Part shown: positions 66-56,926 of the stretch, piece by piece
How positions within the stretch are numbered: position 1 is the first letter of the stretch
Layout: each line of letters starts with the position of its first letter
NCBI GenBank assembly: GCA_020630635.1
Contig: JAHDBB010000001.1
Coordinates: forward strand, 1-56,964
DNA: 56,964 nt
DNA from: Chitinophagales bacterium
Lineage (GTDB): Bacteria > Bacteroidota > Bacteroidia > Chitinophagales > UBA2359
Reading direction: 5' to 3'
Notes under the pieces: generated by a model
Told to the model about the DNA's origin: nothing
The model's database searches: none
Seen by the model: the letters and a program-made list of their open reading frames with translations, nothing else
Program-made: the position numbers and the translations under genes

Positions 66-143
66 GGATCATTAGCTCAGTTGGTTTAGAGCGCTGCCTT
101 GACAGGGCAGAGGTCACTGGTTCGAATCCAGTATGATCCACCA
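66..143 (+). tRNA. tRNA-Val (anticodon GAC); its 3' end overlaps the element attachment core
   Basis: Cloverleaf read by eye: acceptor GGATCAT/ATGATCC, D arm GCTC/GAGC, anticodon stem CTGCC/GGCAG with loop TTGACAG (GAC), T arm ACTGG-TTCGAAT-CCAGT, discriminator A140, CCA 141-143. Confidence 0.9.
126..142. repeat. attL core, 17-bp ATCCAGTATGATCCACC (tRNA 3' end)
   Basis: Identical 17-mer at 126-142, 28518-28534 and 56910-56926, spaced exactly 28392 bp. Flanks differ on the outer sides only. Confidence 0.9.
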
Positions 144-190
144 CGCAAAGCGTGAATCAACCTGCCTCATTACGTTTCAAGCCTCCCATT

Positions 191-226
191 TTGCTGCTGT
201 GTCAATTCCTTCTGACACAGCAGCAA
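191..226 (+). repeat. 14-bp perfect inverted repeat TTGCTGCTGTGTCA/TGACACAGCAGCAA (8-nt loop); candidate terminator and/or pair of integrase arm sites
   Basis: Arms at 191-204 and 213-226, followed by TTTAATTT. Each arm contains the TGTGTCA motif that is also repeated at the other end of the element. Confidence 0.6.
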
Positions 227-257
227 TTTAATTTCAATATGTTTCTGTCACTCACAA

Positions 258-1418
258 ATGTTTCTAGCCATGAAAAAACTAGCGAAACTCAAAAAAAATA
301 AGCGTTGGCAAGTGGAGTATTATTGGAAGGGAAAAAGGCAGCGTGTAGCAGGCTTTAACCATGTTAAGGATGAAGCGGAACGGGAAAAGAAATACATAGA
401 GCTGATTGAAGATATTAACGATTGTCTGAAGGCTGGACTGGAGCCTAATGAAGAAAACTTGGAATTGGCAAAGGAAGGACGTTTGGAAAAAAGAGGTAAA
501 ACTATTCGTGAGGCTTATGAAATGGCTGTGAAAGTAGCTGTAAATAACAAAAGCAAAACAACTATTCGCAACTATACTAACTATGTCAATATATTTCTGA
601 ATTGGCTAAAGGATCAGCAAAAGGATGAGTGTTTAATTGTTGAATTAAGTAAAGCGGATATTGTCGCTTACCTGGATTATTTGAGATTGGAAAGAAAAAC
701 ATATGATGATAAGAGCCTTTCAGATAATACAATCTACAATTATCATAATGTGCTTTCAATTGTTTCTGATAAGTTGGTAGAGCGTGGATTAATGAAAGAA
801 AATCTTTTTGGACTCATTAAAAAGCGAAAGCCAAGTATAAGTCCAAAGAAGCCTTATAGTAAAATTGCTCAAAAAAAGATAATGGAGTATGTGAGGGAAC
901 AGGCTCCAGAAATGATATTACCTATCTCGTTAACATTTATAGGTCTTAGACAAACAGAAAAGACCAGGCTGAAAATTAAGCATATTTATTTGTCTGAACA
1001 GAAATTGAGATTACCAGCAGGGCAAGTTGACCACAAAAATAAAGACCACATAACAATTAATATTCCTGATTTTCTTGCGCCTCTTTTGGCGTACCACATT
1101 AAAGACTGTCCTGTTAATTGGTATGTATTTGGTGTGCAGGCTAAAGGTGATCCTGGTTTAATGCCTGGGCCTGTTCCAATTAATACTAAGCGATTTACAA
1201 GGAGGTGGAAGCGGATCAGGAGAGATTTGTCTTTGTCTGTAGATGAAACGATGTATATGTTTAAACATACGGGTCTTTACGAGATGTGGAAAGCAGGTGT
1301 TGGACCGCTTGACCTTCAACGCCAGATGAAACACAAGGATTTTAGTTCAACTCAACGTTATATTGGATGGTTTGAAAACGGACCAACAGATGATAAGATT
1401 AATCAGGTTTCTTTGTGA
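258..1418 (+). CDS. int: Tyrosine recombinase (integrase)
   Basis: 386 aa, adjacent to attL. N-terminal arm-binding-like KRWQVEYYWKGKRQR. C-terminal catalytic-type residues GLRQTE (R), MFKHTG, MKHKD (H) and STQRY (Y nucleophile). Start may be M5 at 270. Confidence 0.9.
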   Translation: MFLAMKKLAKLKKNKRWQVEYYWKGKRQRVAGFNHVKDEAEREKKYIELIEDINDCLKAGLEPNEENLELAKEGRLEKRGKTIREAYEMAVKVAVNNKSKTTIRNYTNYVNIFLNWLKDQQKDECLIVELSKADIVAYLDYLRLERKTYDDKSLSDNTIYNYHNVLSIVSDKLVERGLMKENLFGLIKKRKPSISPKKPYSKIAQKKIMEYVREQAPEMILPISLTFIGLRQTEKTRLKIKHIYLSEQKLRLPAGQVDHKNKDHITINIPDFLAPLLAYHIKDCPVNWYVFGVQAKGDPGLMPGPVPINTKRFTRRWKRIRRDLSLSVDETMYMFKHTGLYEMWKAGVGPLDLQRQMKHKDFSSTQRYIGWFENGPTDDKINQVSL

Positions 1419-1601
1419 TTTTTTTTTGGGGTTCGCTGTGTGATGGGAGTGCATGTGATTTCGTCTTTATGTTTTCTTAAATACAATATTTGCGGTGGTT
1501 TTGCCGTTGTTTATGGTGTGATTTGGTTGCCTTAGAACAGTAAGCTCGCTTTACTTTCTTTTATTTATTCGTCTGACAAGATTAATCAGGTTTCTTTGTG
1601 A
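1392..1601. repeat. 27-bp direct repeat (1 mismatch) at the 3' ends of two convergent genes
   Basis: GATAAGATTAATCAGGTTTCTTTGTGA at 1392-1418 (integrase C-terminus plus stop) and GACAAGATTAATCAGGTTTCTTTGTGA at 1575-1601 (antisense to the last codons of the 204-aa gene). Confidence 0.8.
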
Positions 1602-2200
1602 GTCATTTTAAAGAAATCTTCTTGAGTAATTTCTCTTGCTATCGAGTATTTGTCTATAAAACTACCTTTCCCAAAGGAGGTAAATTTATATCCGTCACAA
1701 TGGAAACCATATGGTGAAAATTCTCCAGGAGTAATGGAAAGCCCTAGTTTTTTTGCTTTTGCTATTATTTCGTTTTTGCCATTAGCTTTGTAGTTTGCAG
1801 TAAATTTGAAACTATTTTTATGTTCTTGTTGGTCATTTATCAGTCTTTCTTTATGGTGGTTGTAGGGAAAACTGTAAGTAATACTTTGTCTCGGCACTAT
1901 CATTTTATTCTCTTCTTGCTCAATGTCTGCTAGTTTCAATATTCTGATGTGTAGTCCTTTGATTATTGCGTGTCCTTTTAGTGTGAGTTGATACATCTTT
2001 GTCTTGTTTCCTCCCTTAGTTGATTTACTGGGCTTTGTGTGATGAGTTACTAAGCCTTCTTTTTCTAATGCCTTTAGGGTATTGTATATCCCTCCAAGAC
2101 TTAATTCAATGCCATATTTCGGGGCTTCTATATGTAATCCTAGTCCGTGTAAGTTTTTCTTTCTAAGTAAGCTTAATACAGCTATTTTATTTAAAGTCAT
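1586..2200 (-). CDS. PadR-like winged-helix transcriptional regulator with an unknown C-terminal domain
   Basis: N-terminus IAVLSLLRKKNLHGLGL...GGIYNTLKALEKEGLV...KMYQLTLKG fits the PadR wHTH pattern. 204 aa. Confidence 0.55.
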   Translation of the reverse strand: MTLNKIAVLSLLRKKNLHGLGLHIEAPKYGIELSLGGIYNTLKALEKEGLVTHHTKPSKSTKGGNKTKMYQLTLKGHAIIKGLHIRILKLADIEQEENKMIVPRQSITYSFPYNHHKERLINDQQEHKNSFKFTANYKANGKNEIIAKAKKLGLSITPGEFSPYGFHCDGYKFTSFGKGSFIDKYSIAREITQEDFFKMTHKET

Positions 2201-2215
2201 CTCTTCTTATTTTTT

Positions 2216-2250
2216 AAGCTTGCAGGTGTAATATAAGCACCTGCAAGCTT
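2216..2250. promoter_or_regulatory. 13-bp perfect palindrome AAGCTTGCAGGTG(9 nt)CACCTGCAAGCTT between the 203-aa and PadR-like genes; operator or transcriptional stop
   Basis: Arms at 2216-2228 and 2238-2250, 16-50 nt upstream of the PadR-like start codon (2200). Confidence 0.45.
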
Positions 2251-2257
2251 TGTTTAT

Positions 2258-2869
2258 TTAGTGGTTGTATGCAACAGCCACCAAGTAAATTTCAAAGTCT
2301 TCTAAATTATTCAGGTATTCACCAAAAAGACCAGTAGTCCACTCGATTTTATTTTCTCGTGCTTCAAAATGTAAGTCCATTTGGTCACGGTAAGATACTC
2401 CTCCTGAGTCTTCTGGACATATGAATATGTCATCATCTTCATCAATGTAAAATATGGGTTTGTTTAGGTCGGATAAATACACTTGTCCTTTATATTCTAA
2501 GATGTTGATAAAGTCAGAGTCAATCAACTGAAAGGCACATCTTCTATTGTCAATCCTGATGAAAAAAGCGATTTTGCTATTTTCTGAATGAGTTCGTAAA
2601 ATTGCCAGTAGAGAATAAAGTATTTCATCAAATCCTGAATTTATACTTAGTTCCATGACTAAATTTGTCAATGCTTCTCTTATGGCTCTTATTTCTTCTT
2701 GAAACCATGCTGGTGATGTTTTTGTATGTTCTTTCATGTTTCTTTTTAATTCGTAAAATTTATAGTAAAAGTGGATTCTTCGTGCTGTAAAGCCATCAAT
2801 TAAATAGAATGGCTTTATAGATTCCTTCTCGAGTTGTTGGATGTATTGTGGTAGGTCGGCTTTACTCAT
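2258..2869 (-). CDS. Hypothetical protein (203 aa)
   Basis: Long ORF in an operon-like array. Its start overlaps the upstream gene end by 8 nt. No motif recognised. Confidence 0.6.
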   Translation of the reverse strand: MSKADLPQYIQQLEKESIKPFYLIDGFTARRIHFYYKFYELKRNMKEHTKTSPAWFQEEIRAIREALTNLVMELSINSGFDEILYSLLAILRTHSENSKIAFFIRIDNRRCAFQLIDSDFINILEYKGQVYLSDLNKPIFYIDEDDDIFICPEDSGGVSYRDQMDLHFEARENKIEWTTGLFGEYLNNLEDFEIYLVAVAYNH

Positions 2870-3269
2870 TTTTGCGCTCTTCCTTTAATTTGTTTACTTC
2901 ATTTCTTAGATCAAGTAATTCTCTGTTGACTACCTCGAACCTTTTGAGTAAGTGGTCTGTGTCTGTAGTATTGGTGAATGTGTTGCCAACATTCTCTGAT
3001 ATTCCTAATAGTGCCTGTGAAATTGATGTCATGAAATCTCTTTCATATCCTAATGTTATCGCTATAGCCTCTAGTGCGCTTGGATGTCCGTCATCAATAG
3101 ATACTTGGTTGGCTCTAGCTAAGATTAGATTCTTTTGCAATTGAGCTGCAAGATTTAGTAAGTAGATGGATGTTTCTTGATTTGGTGTTCCTACATGGTA
3201 TTTTTTATGCAATATATCTGCTATTTCTCCATGTTCCCTTACTAGGTTATCTGTGTTATAATTGTTCAT
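2862..3269 (-). CDS. Hypothetical protein (135 aa) with a C-terminal coiled-coil tail
   Basis: ORF with the heptad-like C-terminus RFEVVNRELLDLRNEVNKLKEERK. Overlaps the next gene. Confidence 0.6.
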   Translation of the reverse strand: MNNYNTDNLVREHGEIADILHKKYHVGTPNQETSIYLLNLAAQLQKNLILARANQVSIDDGHPSALEAIAITLGYERDFMTSISQALLGISENVGNTFTNTTDTDHLLKRFEVVNRELLDLRNEVNKLKEERKNE

Positions 3270-3367
3270 TATTTGATTTTTTCTGTATGAATTAATAAGT
3301 TAACTACAATCCAGTAAAAGTTTATATGCTCATAAATATGAGTTAATGCCTTTTCTGGTGTATTCCT

Positions 3368-4441
3368 TCAAGCGTTGGAAAATTCAGTTCCATCATCATT
3401 GTCGCCAGAGAACCAATTAGCAACATCGGAACTATCAGGAGCGGGTGGCAAACATTGTAACACGTCGTTCTCTAGTTCTTTTATTCTTTCTTCTTTGTCT
3501 TTGAGCCTTGCCTCTAGGTGTTTCTTTTCTTTTTCTAATTGTTGACAGGTGTTGCTGGACGCTAACATTTTGCCTGTTAGATTGTTTTTTTCGGCTCTAT
3601 ATTCGCCTACCATTAGTTTGTAATCATCCCTTTGACTCTCTGTTAGCTTTAATATGCCTTTTAGATTGTCAATTGTTGCTGCTTGTGCCTTTGTATTAGA
3701 TAGTGTTTCCTCTGTCTCCTCTACTAAGGTCTTTATTCTTTCCTCCAAATGCCTCTTTTCGTCTTTCAATGTCCCTACTTCTGCTTTGTATTTGTTGCTT
3801 ATTTGCTCCAGTTGCTTATAGTCTTTGCCTATTTTCTTGAAATTGTTTTCTAGGGTTCTGTAATCCTCTTGGAGCTGCTTTATTTGATTAATTCCATCAG
3901 TTGCCAATGTCATTCCTTCTTTTTTGAGCATAGCAATAATATTACCTTGCTCTTCTACTTTTTTAGTCAATGTATCACCGCTTAAAATATGGTCTCTTAT
4001 TTGATCTTTGTATCTTTTGATCGTGCCTTCTCGTAATTCAATTCCAGCCTTTGCCTCTGCGGTTACTCTGTCAAGTTCTTCTTTGTTGAACTCGTTCTGT
4101 TTTTTTACTTTTTGGAGTTCTTCCTTTAACGCATTTAATTCAAGTAGATATTTGTCTCTTTCTATTGTTGCGTTATTGTATTCCTTTTCAAGCTGTTCTA
4201 CTTTCAAGATTTCCTTTATTTTGTAATCTTCTCTTGTAAAGAATTTCAAAAAAATATCTAATCCTTCCTGTGCTTTTTCTGTACTTCCCATGCCCGTTAG
4301 ACGCTCAAATAGGTTGATTATTGGCATATCTAATGAATCAAGAAAGTCACTAGCTAAGTCGTAAAAGTCATCAATTTGACGATCTAAATAATCGGCTGCT
4401 TGCTTTGCTTCTTCGGTTGAAATATCAAAGGTAAATTTCAT
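3368..4441 (-). CDS. Coiled-coil protein (357 aa), function unknown
   Basis: K/E/L-rich heptad sequence through most of its length. Acidic C-terminal tail. Confidence 0.7.
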   Translation of the reverse strand: MKFTFDISTEEAKQAADYLDRQIDDFYDLASDFLDSLDMPIINLFERLTGMGSTEKAQEGLDIFLKFFTREDYKIKEILKVEQLEKEYNNATIERDKYLLELNALKEELQKVKKQNEFNKEELDRVTAEAKAGIELREGTIKRYKDQIRDHILSGDTLTKKVEEQGNIIAMLKKEGMTLATDGINQIKQLQEDYRTLENNFKKIGKDYKQLEQISNKYKAEVGTLKDEKRHLEERIKTLVEETEETLSNTKAQAATIDNLKGILKLTESQRDDYKLMVGEYRAEKNNLTGKMLASSNTCQQLEKEKKHLEARLKDKEERIKELENDVLQCLPPAPDSSDVANWFSGDNDDGTEFSNA

Positions 4442-4504
4442 TTTTGTTTTAATTTTTAATTTTTAAAATTAATGTGTAGAAGGACAGAGATTTATTTAAA
4501 TAAC

Positions 4505-4708
4505 TTAATCTCTGTTTTTTAATAATATACTCAAGTTGAGATTATGTCTTTGTAGGTTTTTATTTTGCTTTTTAAGTTCCAATATCTCCTCCTGTAGCTC
4601 AAGTCTGTCCAGCTTCTCTTTTACCCATAGTTTTCTATATTCCTCTGTCTCAGATTCAGCCTCTTGCAACTCTGTCTTCAAAAAAGCAATTGTGTCCTGT
4701 GGATTCAT
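4505..4708 (-). CDS. Small coiled-coil protein (67 aa)
   Basis: Leucine-zipper-like LQEEILELKKQNKNLQ. Lies directly downstream of a terminator and upstream of the 357-aa gene. Confidence 0.5.
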   Translation of the reverse strand: MNPQDTIAFLKTELQEAESETEEYRKLWVKEKLDRLELQEEILELKKQNKNLQRHNLNLSILLKNRD

Positions 4709-4750
4709 TTTTTACAATGTATTGCAGGTTAAATAATTTTAATACATCCT

Positions 4751-4789
4751 TTAAAAACCCTTGTCCGCCCAAGTACGGACAAGGGTTTT
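4751..4789 (-). terminator. Rho-independent terminator after the 329-aa gene
   Basis: Minus strand: AAAACCCTTGTCCG-loop-CGGACAAGGGTTTTT, a 12-14-bp GC-containing stem followed by a T run. Overlaps the stop codon. Confidence 0.75.
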
Positions 4790-5777
4790 ACGGGGTAGGG
4801 CAGGGCTGTTGATAAAGTTCGTCACGTACAAATTCTGCGAATAAATACATGGTGCCTTGCTCCTCTTTTAGTAAGTTCAAATCAATTAAATTTGACTTGG
4901 AAAGCTTCTTTTTTAGGAAGGTCATTCTTCCTAATTTCCTACGTAGGGAATCAGGTTTTAATCCTAATTCTTTTGCTACGTCATTGTATGGTATCCAATT
5001 TCTATCAATTCCAGTTAGTACTTCTTTAGTCTTGGTATTAGTATCTAATTCTATCTTGATAGTTTCCTCTGGTTGTTTCTTTCTTTGCCTTTTTAGTTTT
5101 CTAAATTGATAGGAGTCTAATTCAATCCCATCAACTTTTTTTAAGGCTTCCTCTAAGCGTGTGTCATTGTAATAGATCGGTTGGAATGTTGGGGCAGTTT
5201 GTGCTGTATTCGCAAAATGTCTGCAACACAATTCAAGGTCGTGGCGTGTGCGTACTTGTTTTGCGTTCCAAAAATCCGTTCTCAACATTTCAATCATTTC
5301 TGTGATGCTGTTGGTTTTGCCTGCTCCAATGACTCCAGCAACGAATAAAAATCCGTGTGGTGTCATTATTTCGGGCAATTCCTTGTTTTCGCCAATCTTA
5401 ATCCTTGTAATGGACTTTTCGTAATGCTCACATACCAAAAGCCTTTTTCCGTTTTTTTCCACTATTACTTTCATTCCTCTTGTCTCATTTGGTTTGTTTC
5501 TTGACAATTGGAGTTTTGATCTATTGCCCAACAGCTCGAAGCTCCAAAGCCAATCTAAGTACCTGGTAATATAGTATTGTACAGAACTTAGTTTGTATAA
5601 GAGATAGGAGACTATTGGGAGAATGATAAATGACACCAATGCTATTGTTAATGTGGCTCCCAAAATCACTGTAGAAAGATAGGTGACAGGTGTGTATTGA
5701 TCGTGTGTTTCTGCAATGATGATTAAGGAGATGACATTGATGGCTAGTATAATGTGGATGGTCTTGAATGATCTCAT
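4788..5777 (-). CDS. Membrane-anchored protein with a P-loop (Walker A) motif
   Basis: Two N-terminal hydrophobic helices (IILAINVISLIIIA; VILGATLTIALVSFIILPIV), then Walker A VAGVIGAGKTNS. No clear Walker B seen. C-terminus has an HTH-like segment. Confidence 0.6.
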   Translation of the reverse strand: MRSFKTIHIILAINVISLIIIAETHDQYTPVTYLSTVILGATLTIALVSFIILPIVSYLLYKLSSVQYYITRYLDWLWSFELLGNRSKLQLSRNKPNETRGMKVIVEKNGKRLLVCEHYEKSITRIKIGENKELPEIMTPHGFLFVAGVIGAGKTNSITEMIEMLRTDFWNAKQVRTRHDLELCCRHFANTAQTAPTFQPIYYNDTRLEEALKKVDGIELDSYQFRKLKRQRKKQPEETIKIELDTNTKTKEVLTGIDRNWIPYNDVAKELGLKPDSLRRKLGRMTFLKKKLSKSNLIDLNLLKEEQGTMYLFAEFVRDELYQQPCPTP

Positions 5778-5781
5778 AAGC

Positions 5782-6138
5782 CTATATTGAAAGGAGCATT
5801 AGCAGCCCTATTATATTACAGGCTATGCTGGCTAAAAGACTTATGATGAGTACCTTAATCAACCAAAGTGGTGTATTAGGATGATGATTGTGGTTGATAA
5901 TGGTGTTGTGGCTGTTCTTATTGCTGGTATTGGATGGGGGAGGTATGCCGTATAGTGGTTGACCTTGTGTTCCTCTAATAATTGGATAATTAGCCTCTAA
6001 ATGGCTTTTTAATTGTCTTTTAGTGATAAACTTTTTGCCTGGTAAATTTACCTGCTCAATTGGTAAATAAACCAATTCTGGAATGAGGTTCATAATGCGT
6101 TGATTTGTGTTTTTTAGAGAAAAGAAATCCGTAGGCAC
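5782..6138 (-). CDS. Small protein with a C-terminal transmembrane anchor
   Basis: C-terminus LWLIKVLIISLLASIACNIIGLLMLL. A hairpin TCCGTAG/CTACGGA (6128-6148) covers the first ATG, so the true start is probably M16 (6093). Confidence 0.5.
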   Translation of the reverse strand: MPTDFFSLKNTNQRIMNLIPELVYLPIEQVNLPGKKFITKRQLKSHLEANYPIIRGTQGQPLYGIPPPSNTSNKNSHNTIINHNHHPNTPLWLIKVLIISLLASIACNIIGLLMLLSI

Positions 6139-6362
6139 TCACTACGGATTCATACAAGAGGAGTAAACAGTATGCAAATGAAATAATGTTGAGTGCAGCT
6201 CAAAAATAAACTATTGTAATTTTAATTGCAAGTTTATTTATAATTTTATTTACAATCTTATAAAATATTTATAGAAAATTCCGGCTATTTTTATTTCTAC
6301 AGTTATTTTTTACTAATTTTAGAGCGACAAAACAAACACAGAATATTTTTGCGGAATTGGTA

Positions 6363-6465
6363 TATCTTTGTGCCAAATCTGTAAATTTATTAACATGGAA
6401 GTCGTTTCTCACTTTGTCCAGTCTGTGTCTGGGTGTCGCATCGTGGGGGCGGCTTTCTCCATTTT
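6363..6465 (+). promoter_or_regulatory. Bacteroidota-type -7 promoter box plus a conserved structured 5' leader (copy A)
   Basis: TATCTTTG (6363-6370) fits TAnnTTTG. The following ~95 nt are nearly identical to the reverse complement of 23551-23663. The central hairpin CCAG..CTGG is replaced there by CCGT..ACGG. Confidence 0.6.
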
Positions 6466-6469
6466 ATGA
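6395..6469 (+). CDS. Possible 24-codon upstream ORF within the leader (MEVVSHFVQSVSGCRIVGAAFSIL)
   Basis: The ATG sits in the conserved core. Its stop TGA overlaps the downstream start (ATGA). A homologous 23-codon ORF is in leader copy B. Confidence 0.25.
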   Translation: MEVVSHFVQSVSGCRIVGAAFSIL

Positions 6470-6801
6470 GTACCATGTTGAAACAAAATGATTTAAAAGC
6501 GAATGACACTAGCTTAGTAGTAACTTACAATGAAGGCAAAGGGAAAGACAGTTACTTGATTGAACGATTAGCACCTTTGAGCTATGATCAATTAAAGAAA
6601 GACTTTGAAACCAACACTTTCCTATTGTTTGAGACTATGGACGCAAAGACATTATCAAATGCATTGCTCCAAAAGGATGCACTAGAAGCCATTGTGAGGG
6701 GTGGCATTGATGAAGAATTAATACATGAGTTGGTACGGCTGCAATTGCTGTTCGATATGCTGCGAACTTCTGAACAGTCAGCAGAATTATTGAGGGAATA
6801 G
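6466..6801 (+). CDS. Helical ~111-aa protein, paralog of 23221-23550; function unknown
   Basis: Alignable with the 109-aa protein (LSYDQLKKDF / MSYEDLKHEF; LVRLQLLFDMLRTSE / LVYLQLLYDLLSTAD). The track's GTG start at 6433 lies in the conserved leader, so ATG 6466 is preferred. Confidence 0.7.
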   Translation: MSTMLKQNDLKANDTSLVVTYNEGKGKDSYLIERLAPLSYDQLKKDFETNTFLLFETMDAKTLSNALLQKDALEAIVRGGIDEELIHELVRLQLLFDMLRTSEQSAELLRE

Positions 6802-6824
6802 ATTTATTGGCTTAAAATGAGAAA

Positions 6825-6859
6825 AGGCATCTGGGGGTTTTCCTAGATGCCTTTTTTTT
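6825..6859 (+). terminator. Rho-independent terminator
   Basis: AGGCATCT(12 nt)AGATGCCT followed by TTTTTTTT. Confidence 0.75.
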
Positions 6860-7000
6860 GTTTTATGTATCTTTTATTTTTATTATTTGATACTCAGTTT
6901 TTTTTTGGTTTTTATTTTATTGTTGATTTTCAATGTTTTACATTTTTTCTCCTGGTGAGCTGGTCCGTTCCATTATTTTTTTTTACTAAGCGTAAGGAAT

Positions 7001-8837: not shown

Positions 8838-8845
8838 GGCTTGTT

Positions 8846-48332: not shown

Positions 48333-48350
48333 TTTGGATTATTTTCATTT

Positions 48351-49579: not shown

Positions 49580-49585
49580 CTGGTA

Positions 49586-50047
49586 TTATTCAATAATTTC
49601 GGCTTCTACAGTTTCCGCTTCCTCTCTCTTCCTTCTCTTACCATCAAAGTAAGCCTTGATTAGCATTCCACCATAAACAGCAGCTACATAAGCGATAAGC
49701 GCACCCTCTGGAGAAATATGTAATTCACGATCTTTCCATACTTCCCATGCAAGCCTAGCAATGCGGTCTTTCTTCTCCTTGCTTGCGGTGTATTCGTCTG
49801 GGTCTTTTGACCCACTCAACCAGCCACCAATTAAACCAAAGACAGCATCAGCACTTTCAACGAATACCTCAATTCCTGCTGGTGGACTAGTATGATCCCC
49901 TCCTGATCCAGAAGCCCCACCACTATCATCCTCTAATTCGGCATCCTCAAAGTCGTCGTCTTGCATGTCTTCATAGAACTCAGGATCATTAGCAAGTCGT
50001 TTGCCGATTAAAGAGGGATCATCAATTATTTCCATATCCTCAAACAT
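49586..50047 (-). CDS. Acidic protein with a C-terminal hydrophobic helix, copy 2
   Basis: Same as 21194-21655. Confidence 0.55.
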   Translation of the reverse strand: MFEDMEIIDDPSLIGKRLANDPEFYEDMQDDDFEDAELEDDSGGASGSGGDHTSPPAGIEVFVESADAVFGLIGGWLSGSKDPDEYTASKEKKDRIARLAWEVWKDRELHISPEGALIAYVAAVYGGMLIKAYFDGKRRKREEAETVEAEIIE

Positions 50048-50351
50048 CCCAACCCATATTTTCTTTAGCGAACTTAGAAACATCAAGTGTATCATGATCC
50101 GCTAAAACTTTGACCTTGCGTTTAAGCCTGTACCCCTCATCGTCTTTTTTAACTGTCATGATGCAACCTTGAATATTTCCATTGGGTTGGAACCCTTCCA
50201 GTCCAATGACAATCATAACACCTTCCTCATCCTCATTAAGGTGTTCATTACAATCAGTAATCAACGCTCTTAGCTTACCAAGCGACTCGACCACGAAACT
50301 TTCCGCAAAAGGAACAGCTTTAATTAGGTCAATAGGATTCATTCCTTTCAT
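50040..50351 (-). CDS. Hypothetical protein (103 aa), copy 2
   Basis: Identical translation to 21648-21959. Confidence 0.55.
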   Translation of the reverse strand: MKGMNPIDLIKAVPFAESFVVESLGKLRALITDCNEHLNEDEEGVMIVIGLEGFQPNGNIQGCIMTVKKDDEGYRLKRKVKVLADHDTLDVSKFAKENMGWDV

Positions 50352-50613
50352 TCTCCTTTATTTTATAATGATTTACACCAACATTTGCTACGAAAACAAC
50401 GGCTTTAGAAATGTGGCCGCAATCCGCCCAGTAATTGAGTGCCAAACGCACTCGTATTAAAAGGTTTTCTCTTGCTGTTTTACTTGGTTCTTCATCCATT
50501 TCATCAAGCAAATCAGCAAGAACCTCTTTAACGGTTGATCTACCATCACGAATGGCATTTAACACCAATAGTTTCAGAGATTGACCGTAATACCGTTTTT
50601 CCATTTTCAGCAC
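50329..50613 (-). CDS. Small protein (94 aa), copy 2
   Basis: Identical translation to 21937-22221. Confidence 0.5.
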   Translation of the reverse strand: MLKMEKRYYGQSLKLLVLNAIRDGRSTVKEVLADLLDEMDEEPSKTARENLLIRVRLALNYWADCGHISKAVVFVANVGVNHYKIKENERNESY

Positions 50614-50632
50614 ATTTGAACCGAAAATAAGC

Positions 50633-50640
50633 TATATTTG
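50633..50640 (+). promoter_or_regulatory. -7 promoter box TATATTTG, copy 2
   Basis: Identical to 22241-22248. Confidence 0.55.
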
Positions 50641-50688
50641 TATATCTAACAATAAGAGGAGCGTACAGATAGGCGCAAACCATTGAAA

Positions 50689-51078
50689 ATGGCTGTCAAT
50701 TTTCTTGTAAAAAAGATTACAAGTTTCAATAAGGAAAGAAACCAGACTACTGGAGGTGATATGAAGTGTTGTTACACTAATTTCCATTTAAAAACATGGT
50801 ATCAGAAAGGAACATGGGTTAGGAATCATTGGCTAATTGAAGAATGGGAAATTAAAGGCTACTTCTATCCCAAAGAATGGGAAATAGAAGATGTAGCGGA
50901 ATATGTTGTTAAAACGGAATGGTGGAAAGCAAAGGAAGGCAAAGACCATGACTACATAATACAAGCAAAAGGAGGCATTAAAAGGAAAGGTCAATTTTTC
51001 ATTAAGAAACTAAGTAGCAAAACCAGCAAATCATTGAAAACAGAAGACATTCAAAGTGAAGAAATAGAGAACAAATGA
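50689..51078 (+). CDS. Trp-rich hypothetical protein, copy 2
   Basis: Same as 22297-22686. Confidence 0.6.
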   Translation: MAVNFLVKKITSFNKERNQTTGGDMKCCYTNFHLKTWYQKGTWVRNHWLIEEWEIKGYFYPKEWEIEDVAEYVVKTEWWKAKEGKDHDYIIQAKGGIKRKGQFFIKKLSSKTSKSLKTEDIQSEEIENK

Positions 51079-51079
51079 T

Positions 51080-51087
51080 TATATTTG
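51080..51087 (+). promoter_or_regulatory. -7 promoter box TATATTTG, copy 2
   Basis: Identical to 22688-22695. Confidence 0.5.
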
Positions 51088-51113
51088 TGACATCACTCTA
51101 AAAAAACACACTT

Positions 51114-51551
51114 ATGAAAAACACATTATCTATTTCTTGTTTAGGACTTCTATTTGTAATGGTTATAGGCTGTTTTCCTCCTAGAGCTGTTGGATGGGCA
51201 TACAACAAAGGAGACGACATTGGACATTCCTCTGTAATTATTAGTGACAATGTTGGCTATGACTTGGCTTGGGATGACATCACATCAATACTTACTAGGA
51301 AATTCGACTTTGACATGATTAGCAAGGAGAGCGGATACATTAGAACCAAATGGAGAAAAGACTGGGTATCACAAGGCAAAAAGATTGATAACTACGAAGT
51401 AAGAGTAATTATAAAAATGTCTAAGCAGCGGAAACGAGTTGACATTTATGCTGAAGCTAAAAAACAAGTAGGTAGCCGTTGGTACGACGGATATGATACT
51501 GAGCTACTGGAACAAATCAAAAAAGACATTATTGGAATGGTTGGTAACTAA
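51114..51551 (+). CDS. Lipoprotein (145 aa), copy 2
   Basis: Identical translation to 22722-23159. Confidence 0.7.
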   Translation: MKNTLSISCLGLLFVMVIGCFPPRAVGWAYNKGDDIGHSSVIISDNVGYDLAWDDITSILTRKFDFDMISKESGYIRTKWRKDWVSQGKKIDNYEVRVIIKMSKQRKRVDIYAEAKKQVGSRWYDGYDTELLEQIKKDIIGMVGN

Positions 51552-51567
51552 ACCAATATATCCCAAT

Positions 51568-51608
51568 GAAAAAACGGGGCTAGGTTAATTCCTAGCACCG
51601 TTTTTTTT
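51568..51608. terminator. Bidirectional terminator, copy 2
   Basis: Identical to 23176-23216. Confidence 0.8.
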
Positions 51609-51612
51609 ATGC

Positions 51613-51942
51613 TTATCCCTTCAAATTTTTGGCGGAATAGTCCGCAGTAGAAAGCAGATCATACAGCAATTGCAAATAGACCAAATCTTTTAAATAATCA
51701 TCTTCAACACCTTTACTATTCAATAGTTTCCTCACATCCTGACTAAGCAACACACGTGCTAAGACTTTACTATTAAGATTCGTAAAAAGATCATCTAAAC
51801 GGCAGCCAAATTCATGCTTTAAATCTTCATAACTCATTTGTGTAAGATGCCTAAGCAAATAATCAGGCTGTGTTGGATCGCTTTGATCCGCTCTTGTGGT
51901 TGGGCTAGTGTTTTTAGCCTCATTAATGTTTGTGATTGACAT
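51613..51942 (-). CDS. Helical 109-aa paralog B, copy 2
   Basis: Identical translation to 23221-23550. Confidence 0.7.
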   Translation of the reverse strand: MSITNINEAKNTSPTTRADQSDPTQPDYLLRHLTQMSYEDLKHEFGCRLDDLFTNLNSKVLARVLLSQDVRKLLNSKGVEDDYLKDLVYLQLLYDLLSTADYSAKNLKG

Positions 51943-52055
51943 GGTTCTCTAAATGGAGAAAGCCGCCCCCACAATGCAACACCCGTAGAAACAACGGACA
52001 AAGTGAGAAACGACTTCCATGTTAATAATAACTTTATAGAGTTGGCATAAAGATA
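51943..52055 (-). promoter_or_regulatory. Promoter-like box plus conserved leader B, copy 2
   Basis: Identical to 23551-23663. Confidence 0.6.
51949..52020 (-). CDS. Possible 23-codon uORF, copy 2
   Basis: Identical to 23557-23628. Confidence 0.25.
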   Translation of the reverse strand: MEVVSHFVRCFYGCCIVGAAFSI

Positions 52056-52173
52056 CACCAATCCCATAAAATTACAGTTTCTAAATTTGTTGGCACTAAT
52101 TTAATAAGATTTTTATAAAGGAGGGTAAAAAAGGGAAGTTTTTTTTTTGTTTTTTCAGCAACTTCTTTTTTGG

Positions 52174-52437
52174 TGTTACTTTTGTTAAAATGTTAACTTT
52201 AGGGAATAACTAACTGAATATCAAAAGGTTATCCTGTTACATTTTGTTGTAACAATTTCAATATGTAACGTTACATTTTATATTTTCAAGCAAATCGCAC
52301 AAACATTAAAACAAATCCCAATAAGACAATTTTGTTACAACTGTTAAACTTGTTACTTACATTAAATTTAATTACCTATATTTCTCATTGTCTATTATCT
52401 ATTTATATTGTTTATTAACAAAAGTAACATTGTAACA
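52174..52437. repeat. TGTTAC/GTAACA iteron field (putative origin), copy 2
   Basis: Identical to 23782-24045. Confidence 0.55.
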
Positions 52438-52525
52438 AAAAAAATAGGACACACAAAACATTGAAATAAGCGTTTTTTTAAAAAGGGAATGCCTTTTGGC
52501 TATTTTTTTGGCTGTTTTGGGGCAT

Positions 52526-52562
52526 AAAAAAAGGCAGCAAGTGGTTTCTTGCTGCCTTTTTT
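52526..52562. terminator. Bidirectional terminator, copy 2
   Basis: Identical to 24134-24170. Confidence 0.8.
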
Positions 52563-52619
52563 AGTAAAATTTTGAATTTTGGTTTTGTTTAATATGTTAT
52601 TACATGTCAAAAACCAAAT

Positions 52620-53075
52620 TTATTCCATGTCAAAAACCAAATATTCTGATCCATTCATCTTTCTTCTTAATAGCTGGTGTTTTGGCTTGCACATGATGGT
52701 ACCGTAGTTGATGGAATCTTTGTCGTCACAAAATAAAATTTGTTTTGACTGCGGAACTGTGCTTTGTTTTCCTTTTTCAAGGACATTAATTGTCATTTCA
52801 TTGTTGTTCCAGGTGACAGCATTTTGAGAGTTAAAAGGTATTTGGATAATAGCTCCTTTAGCTAGTATCCACACAGTTTGATTTTGCTTTTGTATGAGTC
52901 CGATATTGTTCTCCTGGAGTAACTTCAATCCAGATTCTTTGATTGAAATCATTTCCATGATTTGTAATGCTTTTAGTTTTTTATCTTGCATGGTTGTTCG
53001 TTTTTTAGGCTTTAAAAATGTTTCGTCTGTCGCTATTATAAGATGGCTGTAATACGGTGGTTTTGATTCGTTCAT
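52620..53075 (-). CDS. Hypothetical protein (151 aa), copy 2
   Basis: Identical translation to 24228-24683. Confidence 0.6.
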   Translation of the reverse strand: MNESKPPYYSHLIIATDETFLKPKKRTTMQDKKLKALQIMEMISIKESGLKLLQENNIGLIQKQNQTVWILAKGAIIQIPFNSQNAVTWNNNEMTINVLEKGKQSTVPQSKQILFCDDKDSINYGTIMCKPKHQLLRRKMNGSEYLVFDME

Positions 53076-53090
53076 GATAATGATAATGTT

Positions 53091-53423
53091 TTATTGGTTA
53101 TTTACTTTTCTTAGCTCCTCTAATTCTTTGTTTAGACTCGCACTTTCGTCACTTAATTGCATTAAGTAAGTTTCAATCTGATCTAGGTTGGAATCAACAT
53201 ATCTATTGAAATTTTTAATGGAGTCATCTGTTCGATGGCAAAACTTAACATGATGAAGGACTTTCTTTTCCTTCTTATGTTTGATATTTACCTCTATCTC
53301 TACATGATGGGAACGGTCATCATCAAGGGTGTCAACTTTGGCTGTTTTCATTAGCTCATAAGTATTATAAGCCCTATCGTAGAGATGATTGTTTGTTTTG
53401 ATTTTTTTTAGAATTTCTTCCAT
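53091..53423 (-). CDS. Hypothetical protein (110 aa), copy 2
   Basis: Identical translation to 24699-25031. Confidence 0.6.
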   Translation of the reverse strand: MEEILKKIKTNNHLYDRAYNTYELMKTAKVDTLDDDRSHHVEIEVNIKHKKEKKVLHHVKFCHRTDDSIKNFNRYVDSNLDQIETYLMQLSDESASLNKELEELRKVNNQ

Positions 53424-53441
53424 TAGTGTTTCTTTTTATGT

Positions 53442-56018
53442 TTAGAAATATTCTTTCCAGTCCTCACTTTTAAAGTGTATTCCTCTGCCTACTGCCTCCT
53501 TAAATTCAATGTCATCTGTATTGAACTCTTTTTTGTACTGGTCTTTTTCTAAATAATAATTACTCTTCCATCCTATTGGCCATTTACAACGACGCACCTT
53601 ACCAGCTTTCAATAAAAGGTTTTTGTAGAGCCAGTTTTTAACGCCTACATTGTCTAATCTTCTCATTTGACTCCCTTCATTGATTTCCTCCGTAAGCTGC
53701 TTTAGTGGGATGTAGAAGTTATCAATATTGTATTCTAGGAATATATTAGTAATATAGTTTGTGATTGTTTTTGATGTTCTATCTAGCGTAAATTGTGTGA
53801 TTTTTTTCATCTGATCCGTAATGATATAGTCTTTACGGAACCAAAAGCGTGTTTCTTTTGAATGGAAAATAGGGGAATTGAAGCACCAATGGAGAAAGGC
53901 AGGAATTTCCTTTTGTAATTTTTGCCTAAAATCAGGAATTTCCTTTTCTGCTTTTTTTACTTTGATAATCCAAAATCTTGTATCCGTTGGGTCTATTTTC
54001 ATAAAATCCAATTCGTCATTAGATGCGAATAGAATCCAAGCGAAAAAGTGCAGCCTTTCCCTTTCTATGCCCTTCATATTCAGAAATATAGAGTCATCTG
54101 TAACCATTCTTTTTAGGCGTTCCTTTTGGCTCTTTTTGTCTAGTTTTAGATATGCTTCATCTATACATATAACTAGCTTTGTCGCATAAGTGCCGTTGAA
54201 ATCACTTTCAAGATGCTCATTGCCAATGACACAGGCATTGCCACCAAAGACATCCTTGACAAAATGCAGAAAGGTACTTTTACCAGTTCCTTGTTCCTTG
54301 CTCACTAGACAAGGTACAGGCAAGAAATTGGTTGGGTATTTTAGCTTTATCTTAAAGCAATCCTGGATCATGGTTAATGGGTCTCCTAGTTGTGGTTTGT
54401 TCCAGTTGCTATTTTCGTTACCAAATAAGTGGGTTAGGAAATATTCAATTGTTGGAAATTGTCCTTTTCCTGGTTTCCATTCTAATGGCTGTATGAGGTT
54501 GTAGCTCTTTGTAATTATTGTTCCTTTCTTGACAATGATTTCCTTTTGGTGGTTTTGAAAATCAGGTGCAATTACGAAGTTGTCATATTTGGGGATGAAA
54601 TCAAGGAATCTTGGCAGTCCCTTTTTTACATAGTCGTCAATGATTAAGCCTTTGTTCCATTTCTTCAATTCTGTTTCGCTGCTATTCATCTTGGCATTGA
54701 AAGACAATGTTTGTTTATAATAATTATTAGCAACTCTGATGAATAGCTTTGCTTTATCATATTTAGAAACTGCTTTGGCTTGTTCTTCAGTAACCTTTCC
54801 AACAATTCCTTTTTTGTCAATTTTAAGCAGTTTTGAAATATGGTTAATGTACAAGTCTTGCTTAGTACTAGATTCTATACATTGTAGATAAGAACAGATT
54901 TCGGTCAATTTTCTGTCAGCTTCTACTGGAGATAGTTGAAAAGTAAATTCCTCACACTTCCTAATAATAGCATCTATACTATTGAATTTTTTTATTTCGA
55001 CTCCTGGAGCAAATGCCCAATCACATGGGTCACTTCCATTAACCAATTCAACTACTTTTACATTGAATCCATGTTTTAGCAATATCCTCATGTCTCGTTC
55101 CGTTGCTTTGGCTCCTGCTGGGTCGTCATCCCTCCAGATGATAACCGTATCACAATATCTTTTCAATAATTTACATTGATGGTCACTTAGAGCCGTTCCG
55201 CAAGTCGCTACAGCATTAGAAATGCCAATTTGGTCTAGTCCCATCACGTCCGTATAGCCTTCGACTAATAGACATTCATTTGACTTGGCAATGGCTTTCC
55301 TATTCTGGTATAGTCCATATAGTATTCTATCCTTCTTGTAGATCAAGGATTCTTTACTATTGATGTATTTGGGTATTTTTTTATTCTTAGATAATGTGCG
55401 GCCGCCAAATCCTGCCACTTTGCCACTATGGTTGAGGATAGGAAACATTACCCTGTGTTGGAAGTAGGGTTTTATTTTGTCCTCCTTTTCTTTGATTAGG
55501 CTTATTTGTATTGCCGTTTCTTTCTCCCATGCTTTGCCTATTTCTTTGGAGATGTCTACTGAATGCCCTATATGCCATTTATCTAGGGTGTCATCGCTAA
55601 AGCCTCTTTTGTTCATGTATTTATAAGAATCGCTATCTGGTAGCTTATCTTTGCACCTGTCACTATATGCATTGGTTAATGTGTATAGTGAATTAGCTTC
55701 CTTTTTAGTGTCTGTAACTCCGTTTTTCTTTTTGTTATACTTGGGTTGGATTCCGTATTTTTGAGCTAGGTATTCCAAGGACTCCTTATAATTTTTTCCC
55801 TCTTTTTCCATAAGGTATTTAATGGAGTCACCAGAAGCACCGCAGCTATAACACTTATAAGTGTTTGATTCTGTGTATAATACTAGCGACGGGTCTTTGT
55901 CATCATGGAAAGGGCATAGGGCTTTTATCTTATTTCCTTTTTTGTGCAAGGTTAGGAACTCCCCTAATACATCATCAATTAATGATGCATCCTTAATTTC
56001 TTGTTCATTAATAATCAT
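53442..56018 (-). CDS. Primase-helicase fusion, copy 2
   Basis: Identical translation to 25050-27626. Confidence 0.88.
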   Translation of the reverse strand: MIINEQEIKDASLIDDVLGEFLTLHKKGNKIKALCPFHDDKDPSLVLYTESNTYKCYSCGASGDSIKYLMEKEGKNYKESLEYLAQKYGIQPKYNKKKNGVTDTKKEANSLYTLTNAYSDRCKDKLPDSDSYKYMNKRGFSDDTLDKWHIGHSVDISKEIGKAWEKETAIQISLIKEKEDKIKPYFQHRVMFPILNHSGKVAGFGGRTLSKNKKIPKYINSKESLIYKKDRILYGLYQNRKAIAKSNECLLVEGYTDVMGLDQIGISNAVATCGTALSDHQCKLLKRYCDTVIIWRDDDPAGAKATERDMRILLKHGFNVKVVELVNGSDPCDWAFAPGVEIKKFNSIDAIIRKCEEFTFQLSPVEADRKLTEICSYLQCIESSTKQDLYINHISKLLKIDKKGIVGKVTEEQAKAVSKYDKAKLFIRVANNYYKQTLSFNAKMNSSETELKKWNKGLIIDDYVKKGLPRFLDFIPKYDNFVIAPDFQNHQKEIIVKKGTIITKSYNLIQPLEWKPGKGQFPTIEYFLTHLFGNENSNWNKPQLGDPLTMIQDCFKIKLKYPTNFLPVPCLVSKEQGTGKSTFLHFVKDVFGGNACVIGNEHLESDFNGTYATKLVICIDEAYLKLDKKSQKERLKRMVTDDSIFLNMKGIERERLHFFAWILFASNDELDFMKIDPTDTRFWIIKVKKAEKEIPDFRQKLQKEIPAFLHWCFNSPIFHSKETRFWFRKDYIITDQMKKITQFTLDRTSKTITNYITNIFLEYNIDNFYIPLKQLTEEINEGSQMRRLDNVGVKNWLYKNLLLKAGKVRRCKWPIGWKSNYYLEKDQYKKEFNTDDIEFKEAVGRGIHFKSEDWKEYF

Positions 56019-56080
56019 AAAAAAAAAGCTTGAAAAGGGTAACAGAAAGGATTTGTGGACGTATTAAGTATATTTACTAG

Positions 56081-56362
56081 TTATGAATTGATTGGCTCGC
56101 CTTCGTTTACTAAATCCTCATAATCAAGCTTTTTAATCCGCTCTTCGTTAATAATAGACAGTAATTTGTCTATCTCAGCAACGCTAAAATGTCTGCGTGT
56201 ATAAAGCACAGATTGAAGAGATATAGACAGTTCCTGTCTTATTCTATTGTCTAAATTTTGTCTGCCATTTTTACCATACTTGATTTTATATTTGGTTAAC
56301 AGTACTCTAACATGTGTTTTTATTAGCTTTGCTGTGTTTGAAACTGTGGATTTTGAAGTCAT
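56081..56362 (-). CDS. Small basic protein (93 aa), copy 2
   Basis: Identical translation to 27689-27970. Confidence 0.5.
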   Translation of the reverse strand: MTSKSTVSNTAKLIKTHVRVLLTKYKIKYGKNGRQNLDNRIRQELSISLQSVLYTRRHFSVAEIDKLLSIINEERIKKLDYEDLVNEGEPINS

Positions 56363-56383
56363 TTTATTAATTTTGTATTATAG

Positions 56384-56457
56384 TTTGTAAATAAAATTGG
56401 TAAGTTTTTTATAAAGGTAATGTTTTGTAAATAAACTTACAAGTTTTATTGTAAGTT
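56384..56457. promoter_or_regulatory. Candidate operator set, copy 2
   Basis: Identical to 27992-28065. Confidence 0.45.
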
Positions 56458-56488
56458 ATTTTTTATTCGTCTCTAAAAAAACACAACA

Positions 56489-56776
56489 ATGAGTAAAGAT
56501 TTACAAGAAAAAATACATCATGGTAAACTTTTGCAGAAAAAACAAAAGGAATCTGGGTTGAGTCAGGAGAAGTTTGCATCTAAGTATGGTGTAAGTCGTC
56601 AAAGCCTAGTCACTTCATTTAAAAAAGATAAACTTAGACAAATACTTGTAAAAATGAAGGCTCATGGTTTTGATGTGTCTGATTTTGGTCTGGAAGGCTT
56701 TACTGATCATTATGGCAAGCTTGATGAAATTATTGAGCGTTTGGACAGAATTGAGGGGATGCTTGCTAATAAATAA
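56489..56776 (+). CDS. XRE-type HTH protein, copy 2
   Basis: Identical translation to 28097-28384. Confidence 0.6.
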   Translation: MSKDLQEKIHHGKLLQKKQKESGLSQEKFASKYGVSRQSLVTSFKKDKLRQILVKMKAHGFDVSDFGLEGFTDHYGKLDEIIERLDRIEGMLANK

Positions 56777-56790
56777 AGGCTGTTAATATC

Positions 56791-56828
56791 TGTGTCAAAC
56801 TGTGTCAAAAGTGGGATAAGTGTGTCAA
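56791..56828 (+). repeat. Three direct TGTGTCAA repeats, copy 2
   Basis: Identical to 28399-28436. Confidence 0.55.
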
Positions 56829-56909
56829 AATAGCAAACTATTGGTATTAAATCAATTTTGTAAAGATGTGGTTTTTAAAGGTTTATACTTTTAGTTCGTG
56901 TCTATGATT

Positions 56910-56926
56910 ATCCAGTATGATCCACC
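56910..56926. repeat. attR core
   Basis: ATCCAGTATGATCCACC followed by non-element flank CCTCCTCAAATAACATCC. Confidence 0.9.

Follow-up and report, generated by a model that had tools for sequence, protein, structure and literature searches.

Tandem prophages are known from lambda and P2 double lysogens. CTXphi also forms arrays of head-to-tail copies, in which the internal junction is able to generate the replicative form. This filamentous ssDNA phage, which the host XerCD integrates at dif, requires the array for its virions. Further tandem arrays are described for the M. abscessus prophage prophiT36-2 (PMC9934374) and for SGI1 (PMC2297512). Contigs that contain the same viral genome 2-6.8 times are treated in the CheckV paper (PMC8116208) as "probably artifacts of metagenomic assembly"; according to the same paper, assembler k values (55, 77, 99) leave footprints at contig ends.

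The window analysed here is an entire contig of 56,964 nt. With tandem prophages and polylysogens it shares the order attL, attP-like junction, attR, the direct orientation of the copies and a tyrosine integrase at a tRNA gene. Tandem prophages and SGI1 have, however, been shown on single molecules (PCR, Southern blot, closed genomes), whereas the present case is known solely from a contig sequence, whose geometry argues against a pure array. As in CTXphi, the copies are arranged head to tail, with an internal junction of the kind that yields the replicative form; unlike CTXphi, the element encodes a tyrosine integrase of its own and its attP is complete, so that a single copy can excise. The contigs labelled "kmer_freq > 1" in CheckV and "concatemer" in IMG/VR (PMC8116208) likewise consist of integral identical repeats with almost nothing else in the contig, and at its right end the window has a terminal length that would likewise fit an assembler k (55) minus the core. 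In contrast to these, the repeat is capped here by two different host junctions (attL and attR) and is not a pure circular multimer; the corresponding graph would thus be a loop that can be entered and left, rather than a simple cycle.

Repeat unit and attachment sites

The longest contig recorded for the window's own proteins is 56,964 nt, the length of the window itself. All but 163 of these nucleotides belong to the repeat, and the contig contains the repeated unit and essentially nothing else, as in an assembler concatenation, where the copies are likewise identical at every base. The repeat, its junctions and the adjoining host DNA comprise the following features:

1-125, forward strand: left host flank including the 5' part of tRNA-Val, all host DNA on the left (base comparison)
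66-143, forward strand: tRNA-Val(GAC), intact at attL (ARAGORN; Rfam RF00005 tRNA at 66-140, 70.8 bits)
126-142, forward strand: attL core ATCCAGTATGATCCACC (sequence comparison)
126-28517, no strand: first copy of the 28,392-nt unit, made up of core and element (base-by-base comparison)
191-226, forward strand: hairpin between core and integrase gene, 14-bp stem with TGTGTCAA and its complement (copy 2 at 28583-28618)
28399-28437, forward strand: three direct TGTGTCAAA repeats in the right arm, starting at 28399, 28409 and 28429 (copy 2 at 56791-56829)
28518-28534, forward strand: core of the attP-type junction, preceded by the right arm of the element and followed by the left arm
28518-56909, no strand: second copy of the 28,392-nt unit, without any difference from the first (base-by-base comparison)
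56910-56926, forward strand: attR core, the first 17 nt of the contig's last 55-mer
56927-56964, forward strand: right host flank of 38 nt, which together with the 17-nt core makes 55

A base-by-base comparison at an offset of 28,392, the period of the repeat, finds positions 126-28534 identical to 28518-56926, a single unbroken run of 28,409 nt with 0 mismatches, i.e. no substitution and no indel. The 124 differences at this offset are all located in the flanks (1-125; 28535-28572 versus 56927-56964). The repeat is far beyond chance, and the two perfect copies of the original prediction, claimed to be free of indels and substitutions, are confirmed over their full length. None of the 12-mers of the left flank (1-125) recurs elsewhere in the contig.

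The att core corresponds to the last 17 nt of tRNA-Val ahead of its final A. It occurs exactly three times, at 126, 28518 and 56910, the positions originally given for it. The three junctions read as expected, with tRNA, core and ACGCAAAG at attL, ..CTATGATT, core and ACGCAAAG at attP, and ..CTATGATT, core and CCTCCTC at attR, and so bear out the predicted set of attL, attP-like junction and attR. The gene start of the integrase is about 115 nt from the core. As in elements whose tyrosine integrase targets a tRNA gene, the integrase gene lies near one end and a direct repeat of the tRNA 3' end is present at both ends, the tRNA being intact; the predicted integration at tRNA-Val, placed at its 3' end, agrees with ARAGORN, Rfam, the core and the integrase.

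The hairpin at 191-226 is a candidate terminator or pair of arm-type sites. The TGTGTCAAA repeats, about 80-120 nt from the core, are candidate arm-type sites of the integrase; the motif has 6 matches versus 1.07 expected, a number reached in 0 of 100 shuffles. The attB/attR pattern has no exact match in GTDB representative genomes, among which the host lineage is not represented. The 3' half of the tRNA-Val has no exact match in the GTDB representative genomes (185,579 reference species) or in JGI metagenomes, nor does the pattern of right arm plus core have a match in JGI metagenomes.

Contig ends, run assemblies and copy number

The tandem array probably stands for one integrated copy of the element (E) together with circles, either excised or replicating; an assembler that resolves loops would have written the two forms as flank-E-attP-E-flank. 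A 28.4-kb temperate element would, by means of its tyrosine integrase, recombine the 17-nt core with the 3' end of the tRNA-Val gene, and the samples would have held integrated copies, yielding attL and attR reads, together with excised, replicating or packaged circular genomes, yielding attP reads. The graph would lead from the entrance into E and from there either along an attP edge back to E or to the exit. Its shortest walk through every junction would be flank-attL-E-attP-E-attR-flank, and heuristic loop resolution would write E twice, in necessarily identical copies. The "short loop" resolvers of SPAdes and metaSPAdes presumably write such loops in this way. With one graph edge written twice, the zero differences over 28,409 nt would be expected, and the array would represent two molecular forms, not two copies on one chromosome. 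Molecules with attL, attR and attP are all present in the samples, and attP is routinely present in lysogen cultures (PMC9934374). A merging of integrated and circular forms in the assembly had been the third alternative of the original prediction; contig geometry and an independent contig that shows attP only, both set out below, make it the best supported one.

The first base of the attR core is also that of the contig's last 55-mer (38 + 17 = 55). The base to the left of the core is A in the tRNA and T in the element arm; since these differ, the last 55-mer is the first k-mer common to the attR and attB paths. The right end of the contig thus coincides, judged from the sequence, with the vertex where a de Bruijn graph of k=55 would merge the two paths. 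The identity of the copies, the three junction types, the whole-contig status and the independent attP are seen directly, while the assembler and its k, the presence of attB and the dominance of circles are inferred. The fit is limited to the right end, as the left flank of 125 nt, not 38, fits no simple k; under k=55, the left end needs an extra assumption, i.e. an additional short graph edge spanning 1-142. MEGAHIT with k=141 was considered for the left flank (125 + 17 = 142) and dropped, since an assembler that outputs plain unitigs has no way of writing a 28-kb edge a second time. A further candidate, the window as a provirus excised from a longer contig by a boundary caller, was rejected, as the ends match no gene or tRNA boundary and the recorded contig has the same length as the window.

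Independent data are provided by the Logan k=31 assemblies of SRR14415273, SRR14415274 and SRR14415275, in which the element is found in pieces of 3-9 kb, 100% identical; a literature search for the three runs retrieved no paper. One contig (L006/L009, 9,314 nt) crosses the attP junction unbranched and at 100% identity. It is the sole retrieved Logan contig to cross an element end, and it shows attP alone; attL and attR are absent from the Logan contigs retrieved. At the branches that internal exact repeats cause, at 23607 and 13401, the Logan contigs do stop exactly, yet this one passes attP, which was therefore the only retained path in that run. An array with attL, attP and attR at 1:1:1 should have branched at the core in a k=31 assembly; chance or tip clipping could account for absent attL/attR branches in one run, with low coverage fragmenting the Logan contigs. 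The fragmentation into 3-9 kb looks like accurate reads at modest coverage, in all likelihood short ones. In that case a single read could neither span 28 kb nor link the two copies, and the copy number in the contig would be the choice of the assembler. One Logan contig ends at 28504, 13 nt short of the core. An attP/attR branch was considered as the cause and set aside as unproven: a standard unitig should have run on to 28534, and a coverage gap explains the end equally well, many other contig ends being located at non-repeat positions.

Two copies physically integrated head to tail at tRNA-Val, the headline of the original prediction, are an unlikely alternative. Such a double lysogen would stem from a second circle entering the resident attL or attR, or from the integration of a dimeric circle, too recently for differences to arise, and Int-mediated recombination between neighbouring att sites could release a monomer with one copy staying behind. 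A real tandem dimer would yield exactly the same contig sequence, and at this level the direct orientation of the copies, the attP-type junction between them and attL and attR outside all agree with it. The attP junction is also present in the independent data, the integrase and the arm-type repeats are intact, and tandem arrays arising via attP x attL/attR are documented in prophages (PMC9934374) and genomic islands (PMC2297512). However, host flanks of a double lysogen are expected at half the element depth and without a branch at the junctions, so that the contig should continue into the host; it stops 125 and 38 nt outside the array. The right end on the predicted k=55 merge vertex of attR and attB implies empty sites in the sample, and the k=31 contig is unbranched at attP, where an equally frequent attR would cause a branch. 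Indirectly, these observations also speak against flanks continuous with unbranched att sites (1:1:1, no attB). Neither the contig geometry nor the independent 3-9 kb fragments lend support to two copies on one molecule, and the headline of a physical array is not upheld.

Far less probable still is a replicative concatemer, i.e. head-to-tail multimers from rolling-circle or recombination-dependent replication, with most molecules unintegrated and a few reads of a rare integrated copy joined to the ends as short host flanks: attP is the sole junction in the independent contig, the element encodes its own primase-helicase and packaging ATPase and the flanks are shorter than one typical short read, but the multimers have the same sequence as monomer circles, flank-E-E-flank remains an assembly construct and thereby a variant of the merging of integrated and circular forms, and viruses with A32/B204-type ATPases are not known to package from concatemers.

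Gene content and relatives of the 28.4-kb unit

Read as one integrated copy plus circles, the window contains a single 28.4-kb unit, whose genes and repeats are given here in the coordinates of copy 1:

258-1418, forward strand: tyrosine integrase (Pfam Phage_integrase and SAM-like domains; phrog_1 at 8e-32; copy 2 at 28650-29810)
1586-2200, reverse strand: PadR-family regulator (3.5e-12)
6387-6464 (arm 1) and 23559-23636 (arm 2), no strand: 78-nt inverted repeat, 88%
7001-7582, 7576-8169 and 8166-8837, reverse strand: three consecutive cell-wall hydrolase genes with N-terminal membrane anchors
11088-15901, reverse strand: two cysteine-rich proteins of about 800 aa each
15905-19233, reverse strand: series of small proteins, the majority with a single predicted transmembrane helix (hydropathy)
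19245-19940, reverse strand: 231-aa orphan protein downstream of the ATPase
20200-20820, reverse strand: 206-aa genome-packaging ATPase of the FtsK-HerA / A32 / STIV B204 type
25050-27626, reverse strand: DnaG-type primase fused to a DUF5906/D5-like helicase
27689-28384, both strands: divergent pair of small genes, 93 aa (reverse) and 95 aa, HTH-like (forward), adjoining the right arm

In the independent assembly, the integrase call starts at position 270 and gives a protein of 382 aa. The hydrolases are assigned by Peptidase_M15_3 (1.4e-21) and the endolysin families phrog_873 and phrog_894, the third by transmembrane prediction and sequence resemblance. The arms of the inverted repeat bracket a 17-kb block of structural and lysis genes, and two small genes that are paralogues each have one of the arms upstream. 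An 801-aa member of the cysteine-rich pair contains a Big_9/cadherin-like domain and repeated CxxGxxC modules; both proteins are candidate spike or host-recognition proteins. The 231-aa protein is, by position only, a candidate capsid protein. It has no homologue among 5.8 billion proteins, the word-indexed search returning only the query itself, and its AF2 single-sequence model (pLDDT 32) is unusable. With its integrase, complete attP, arm-type repeats, lysis genes and packaging ATPase, the element looks like an active virus.

A word-indexed homologue search with the ATPase also returned the query only, whereas an exhaustive HMMER search assigns it to a family of 534 small ATPases. The profile of this family matches PDB 4KFR and 4R2H over about 150 residues; PDB sequence searches with the single ATPase and with a 302-aa protein were uninformative. 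The AF2 model of the ATPase has a pLDDT of 93.8, and its top 15 Foldseek matches in PDB are all B204 (TM 0.62-0.71), with a Corticoviridae NTPase and A32-like ATPases among the BFVD matches. IMG/VR contigs with related ATPases share no gene with the unit besides the ATPase (tblastn), and the proteins at syntenic positions in these contigs have neither similarity nor PHROG matches. No match was obtained with the attP junction and the primase in IMG/VR, or by megablast against GenBank phages.

The unit resembles the PM2-like corticovirus proviruses and the STIV group (Yutin et al. 2018, PMC5894146) in its small stand-alone B204-fold ATPase, tyrosine integrase, M15-type lytic enzymes, many small membrane proteins and lack of signals for a terminase, a portal or an HK97 capsid. 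Its 28.4 kb exceed the size of most bacterial members described, and it differs from this group by its replication module of DnaG primase and D5 helicase and in that no jelly-roll capsid protein is recognised: none of the structural ORFs has a family match, the 231-aa candidate included. Scans with Pfam and PHROGs of the ORFs of the structural/lysis block and most other ORFs >90 aa, a purely negative line of evidence, found no terminase with a nuclease domain, portal, HK97 capsid or tail gene. Apart from the ATPase, integrase, primase and hydrolases, there is no convincing match among the proteins that were homologue-searched or scanned with Pfam and PHROGs, and the capsid and spike candidates appear, at the level of sequence, to be without detectable relatives. 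The combination of integrase, primase-helicase, hydrolases, small membrane proteins and a B204/A32 ATPase in an orphan temperate element suggests a non-tailed virus. Whatever its copy number, there is about an even chance that the unit is the complete genome of an undescribed lineage of temperate, non-tailed, membrane-containing dsDNA viruses, caught both integrated and extrachromosomal. Its host may be Bacteroidota-like, according to the nearest DnaG relatives and the signal peptides.

Significance

If the array is an artefact, it serves as a warning that joining integrated and circular forms in one contig makes a genome seem larger than it is and simulates polylysogeny. A real array would add to the tandem prophages, which are already well known. 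The contig proves that the element is mobile, as attL, attR and attP all occur in the samples and its ends are defined to the base. With the unit, a clean and complete genome is available for an orphan virus-like element with the hallmark packaging ATPase of non-tailed viruses, which are badly under-sampled among the temperate viruses of bacteria.

Duplication, attachment sites and contig ends

Shifted by 28,392 against itself, the window is identical over one uninterrupted stretch of 28,409 nt (126..28534 = 28518..56926), with 0 mismatches and 0 gaps; the 124 differences at this offset all lie in the outer flanks. The 17-nt att core ATCCAGTATGATCCACC occurs exactly three times in the window and forms the 3' end of a tRNA-Val gene.

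66-143, tRNA-Val(GAC) (ARAGORN; Rfam tRNA at 66-140)
126, attL junction: tRNA, then core, then ACGCAAAG
28518, attP-type junction: CTATGATT, then core, then ACGCAAAG
56910, attR junction: CTATGATT, then core, then CCTCCTC

As a description of the sequence, the original prediction (two identical copies at +28392, integration at tRNA-Val, a 17-bp core at 126, 28518 and 56910, and the order attL, attP-like, attR) is fully correct.

In the protein records, the contig that carries the window's proteins is 56,964 nt long, the length of the window itself. Host DNA thus amounts to only 125 nt on the left and 38 nt on the right of 56,801 nt of element. The attR core and the final 55-mer of the contig both begin at 56910. 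Immediately left of the core, the tRNA has A and the element's right arm has T; this 55-mer is therefore the first k-mer common to the paths through attR and through attB, the empty integration site. The final default k of metaSPAdes is 55, and the right end may be the position where an edge of a k=55 de Bruijn graph ends; no k fits the 125 nt of the left end as simply, and the arithmetic is therefore treated as suggestive only. According to the CheckV paper, footprints of the assembler k (55, 77 and 99) can be seen at the ends of contigs (PMC8116208).

Searches of 185,579 GTDB species representatives and of JGI metagenomes gave no exact match to the attB/attR pattern; the 3' part of the tRNA-Val(GAC) (37-nt and 46-nt stretches) likewise has none in these representatives or in 241 million JGI records, and the host lineage seems not to have been sampled. 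A Bacteroidota-like host is no more than hinted at, by the DnaG relatives, by a G+C content of 37% and by signal peptides in ORFs 9192-10100 and 10110-10649.

Independent assemblies and the number of copies

Exact-protein look-ups match the element only in Logan assemblies (k=31), those of the consecutive runs SRR14415273, SRR14415274 and SRR14415275. Every piece matches the window at 100% identity, and the pieces are only 3-9 kb long. Two contig ends, 23607 and 13401, are the first k-mer outside exact internal repeats, and these contigs therefore stop at graph branches.

6387-6419 / 23604-23636, 33-nt exact inverted repeat
13336 / 13390, 41-nt perfect direct repeat

The remaining ends fall on non-repeat positions that differ from run to run, which points to modest coverage. 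One contig of SRR14415273 (9,314 nt, listed as both L006 and L009) corresponds to window 25360-34673 and carries PadR - int - attP - 95-aa gene - 93-aa gene - primase unbroken across the junction; the attP junction is therefore real. It is the only path retained by the assembler in this run; a 1:1:1 array of attL, attP and attR should produce a branch at the core. Neither attL nor attR is present in the Logan contigs retrieved by these protein-based look-ups, to which the host flanks offer no protein handle.

The data establish molecules with attL, attR and attP, not two copies on one molecule. The tandem array is probably an artefact of representation, in which integrated and circular forms were merged. 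In the graph of such a mixture the element would be one edge (E) with attL as entrance, attR as exit and attP as return edge, and the shortest walk over all edges would be flank-attL-E-attP-E-attR-flank, the observed contig. Copies written twice from one edge are automatically identical. Where a path ends in E, the 'short loop' resolver of SPAdes path extension would extend it by loop, E and exit; assemblers that output plain unitigs are not known to write E twice. CheckV lists contigs, in the hundreds, in which the same viral genome occurs 2-6.8 times, and views them as probable assembly artefacts (PMC8116208).

A pure double lysogen, with two integrated copies in real tandem, would give the same assembly graph as one integrated copy plus circles. 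It is unlikely: the flanks are extremely short though host DNA is expected at half the element depth, the right end coincides with an apparent attB merge vertex, and the Logan attP contig is unbranched. It keeps some probability from the 125-nt left flank, which lacks an explanation, and from the low Logan coverage, which could mask branches. Real arrays from attP x attL/attR recombination are known (PMC9934374), among them that of SGI1 (PMC2297512); an array here, if real, would be a known phenomenon. Concatemer variants take up the small remaining probability. The predicted array stands in the contig sequence and is disfavoured as two physical copies; the merging of integrated and circular forms, named in the original prediction as an alternative, is the most likely reading.

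Gene content and att arms

The unit contains the following features:

258-1418, tyrosine integrase (family matches)
PadR regulator (family match)
divergent pair of small genes, one HTH-like, adjoining the right arm
DnaG-type primase fused to a DUF5906/D5-like helicase (domain matches)
three membrane-anchored cell-wall hydrolases (family matches and predicted anchors)
11088-15901, minus strand, two adjacent, extremely cysteine-rich proteins of ~800 aa, one with a Big_9 domain
run of small single-pass membrane proteins (predicted)
20200-20820, minus strand, P-loop ATPase of 206 aa
28399-28437, right arm, three phased direct repeats TGTGTCAAA (starts 28399, 28409, 28429)
28583-28618 = 191-226, between core and int, hairpin with a 14-bp stem, carrying TGTGTCAA and its complement

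No full-length relative of the primase-helicase fusion was found; the closest match to its primase half is Chitinophagaceae DnaG (~37% identity). The 801-aa cysteine-rich protein has ~5 repeats of ~60 nt with EB/DUF7107-like C-P-x-G-[WFY]-x-C-x-x-G-x-C modules (14175-14465), and the 41-nt direct repeat lies within the region of this gene pair, whose products are possibly disulfide-stabilised spike proteins. The hairpin contains the same motif as the TGTGTCAAA repeats, and both are plausible candidates for arm-type integrase sites; alternatively, the hairpin is a candidate terminator insulating int from tRNA read-through.

The 33-nt inverted repeat is the exact core of a 78-nt inverted repeat of 88% identity (6387-6464 / 23559-23636, also at +28392), which causes the Logan contig break at 23607. 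Its arms lie just upstream of two paralogous small genes, ~6466-6801 (plus strand) and 23221-23550 (minus strand), with the whole 17-kb structural and lysis block between them; the repeat could serve as a common regulatory region or as an inversion substrate. Two ORFs at 9192-10649 (minus strand, 302 aa and 179 aa) have classical signal peptides ending in A-Q-S, which are unusual for virion proteins; the products may be lysogenic-conversion proteins, secreted or on the cell surface, or else virion components that are exported. Three tandem copies of a 10-nt unit (CAATCGTAAC-like) occupy 19954-19993 in the gap between the ATPase and a 231-aa ORF, directly upstream of the latter on its coding (minus) strand, where they possibly regulate late or structural genes.

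Packaging ATPase and relatives of the element

The ATPase belongs to a large unannotated family, with 534 representatives at E<=1e-3 in an exhaustive search, mostly of 180-215 aa, with invariant G25/K31/H142 and a conserved DDCR..Y motif. The only PDB sequences to which the family profile can be aligned over ~150 residues are those of the STIV2/STIV B204 packaging NTPase, and members match TrwB, Zot, HerA and Pox_A32 models. The AF2 model (pLDDT 93.8) has B204 in all of its top 15 PDB structure matches (TM 0.62-0.71); matches in a viral structure library are a Corticoviridae NTPase, A32-like ATPases and STIV. Forty-seven of 55 family members match phrog_2666, whose label 'terminase large subunit' may be misleading for these proteins, given the STIV B204-like fold.

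Pfam and PHROGs scans, which covered the ORFs of the structural and lysis block and most other ORFs over 90 aa, yielded no match for the structural ORFs; terminase, portal, HK97 capsid and tail proteins were all absent from the results. A jelly-roll capsid protein was not recognised; the 231-aa candidate has no homologues and its AF2 model is unusable. Tyrosine integrases and M15 peptidases are known among non-tailed viruses of the PM2-like corticovirus / STIV type (PMC5894146). Three IMG/VR contigs of 17-27 kb (L011, L012 and L013) encode ATPases ~30% identical to that of the element. L012 (IMGVR_UViG_3300028178_000030) also carries a tyrosine integrase and an SF3 helicase-primase, and its unannotated ORFs follow an order like that of the element (ATPase, gap, ORF of ~190-225 aa, ORF of ~165-185 aa); beyond these genes the element and the related contigs have nothing further in common. 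The unit is a complete virus-like genome, new and mobile, and its relatives suggest a broader group of temperate viruses without tails, so far uncharacterised.
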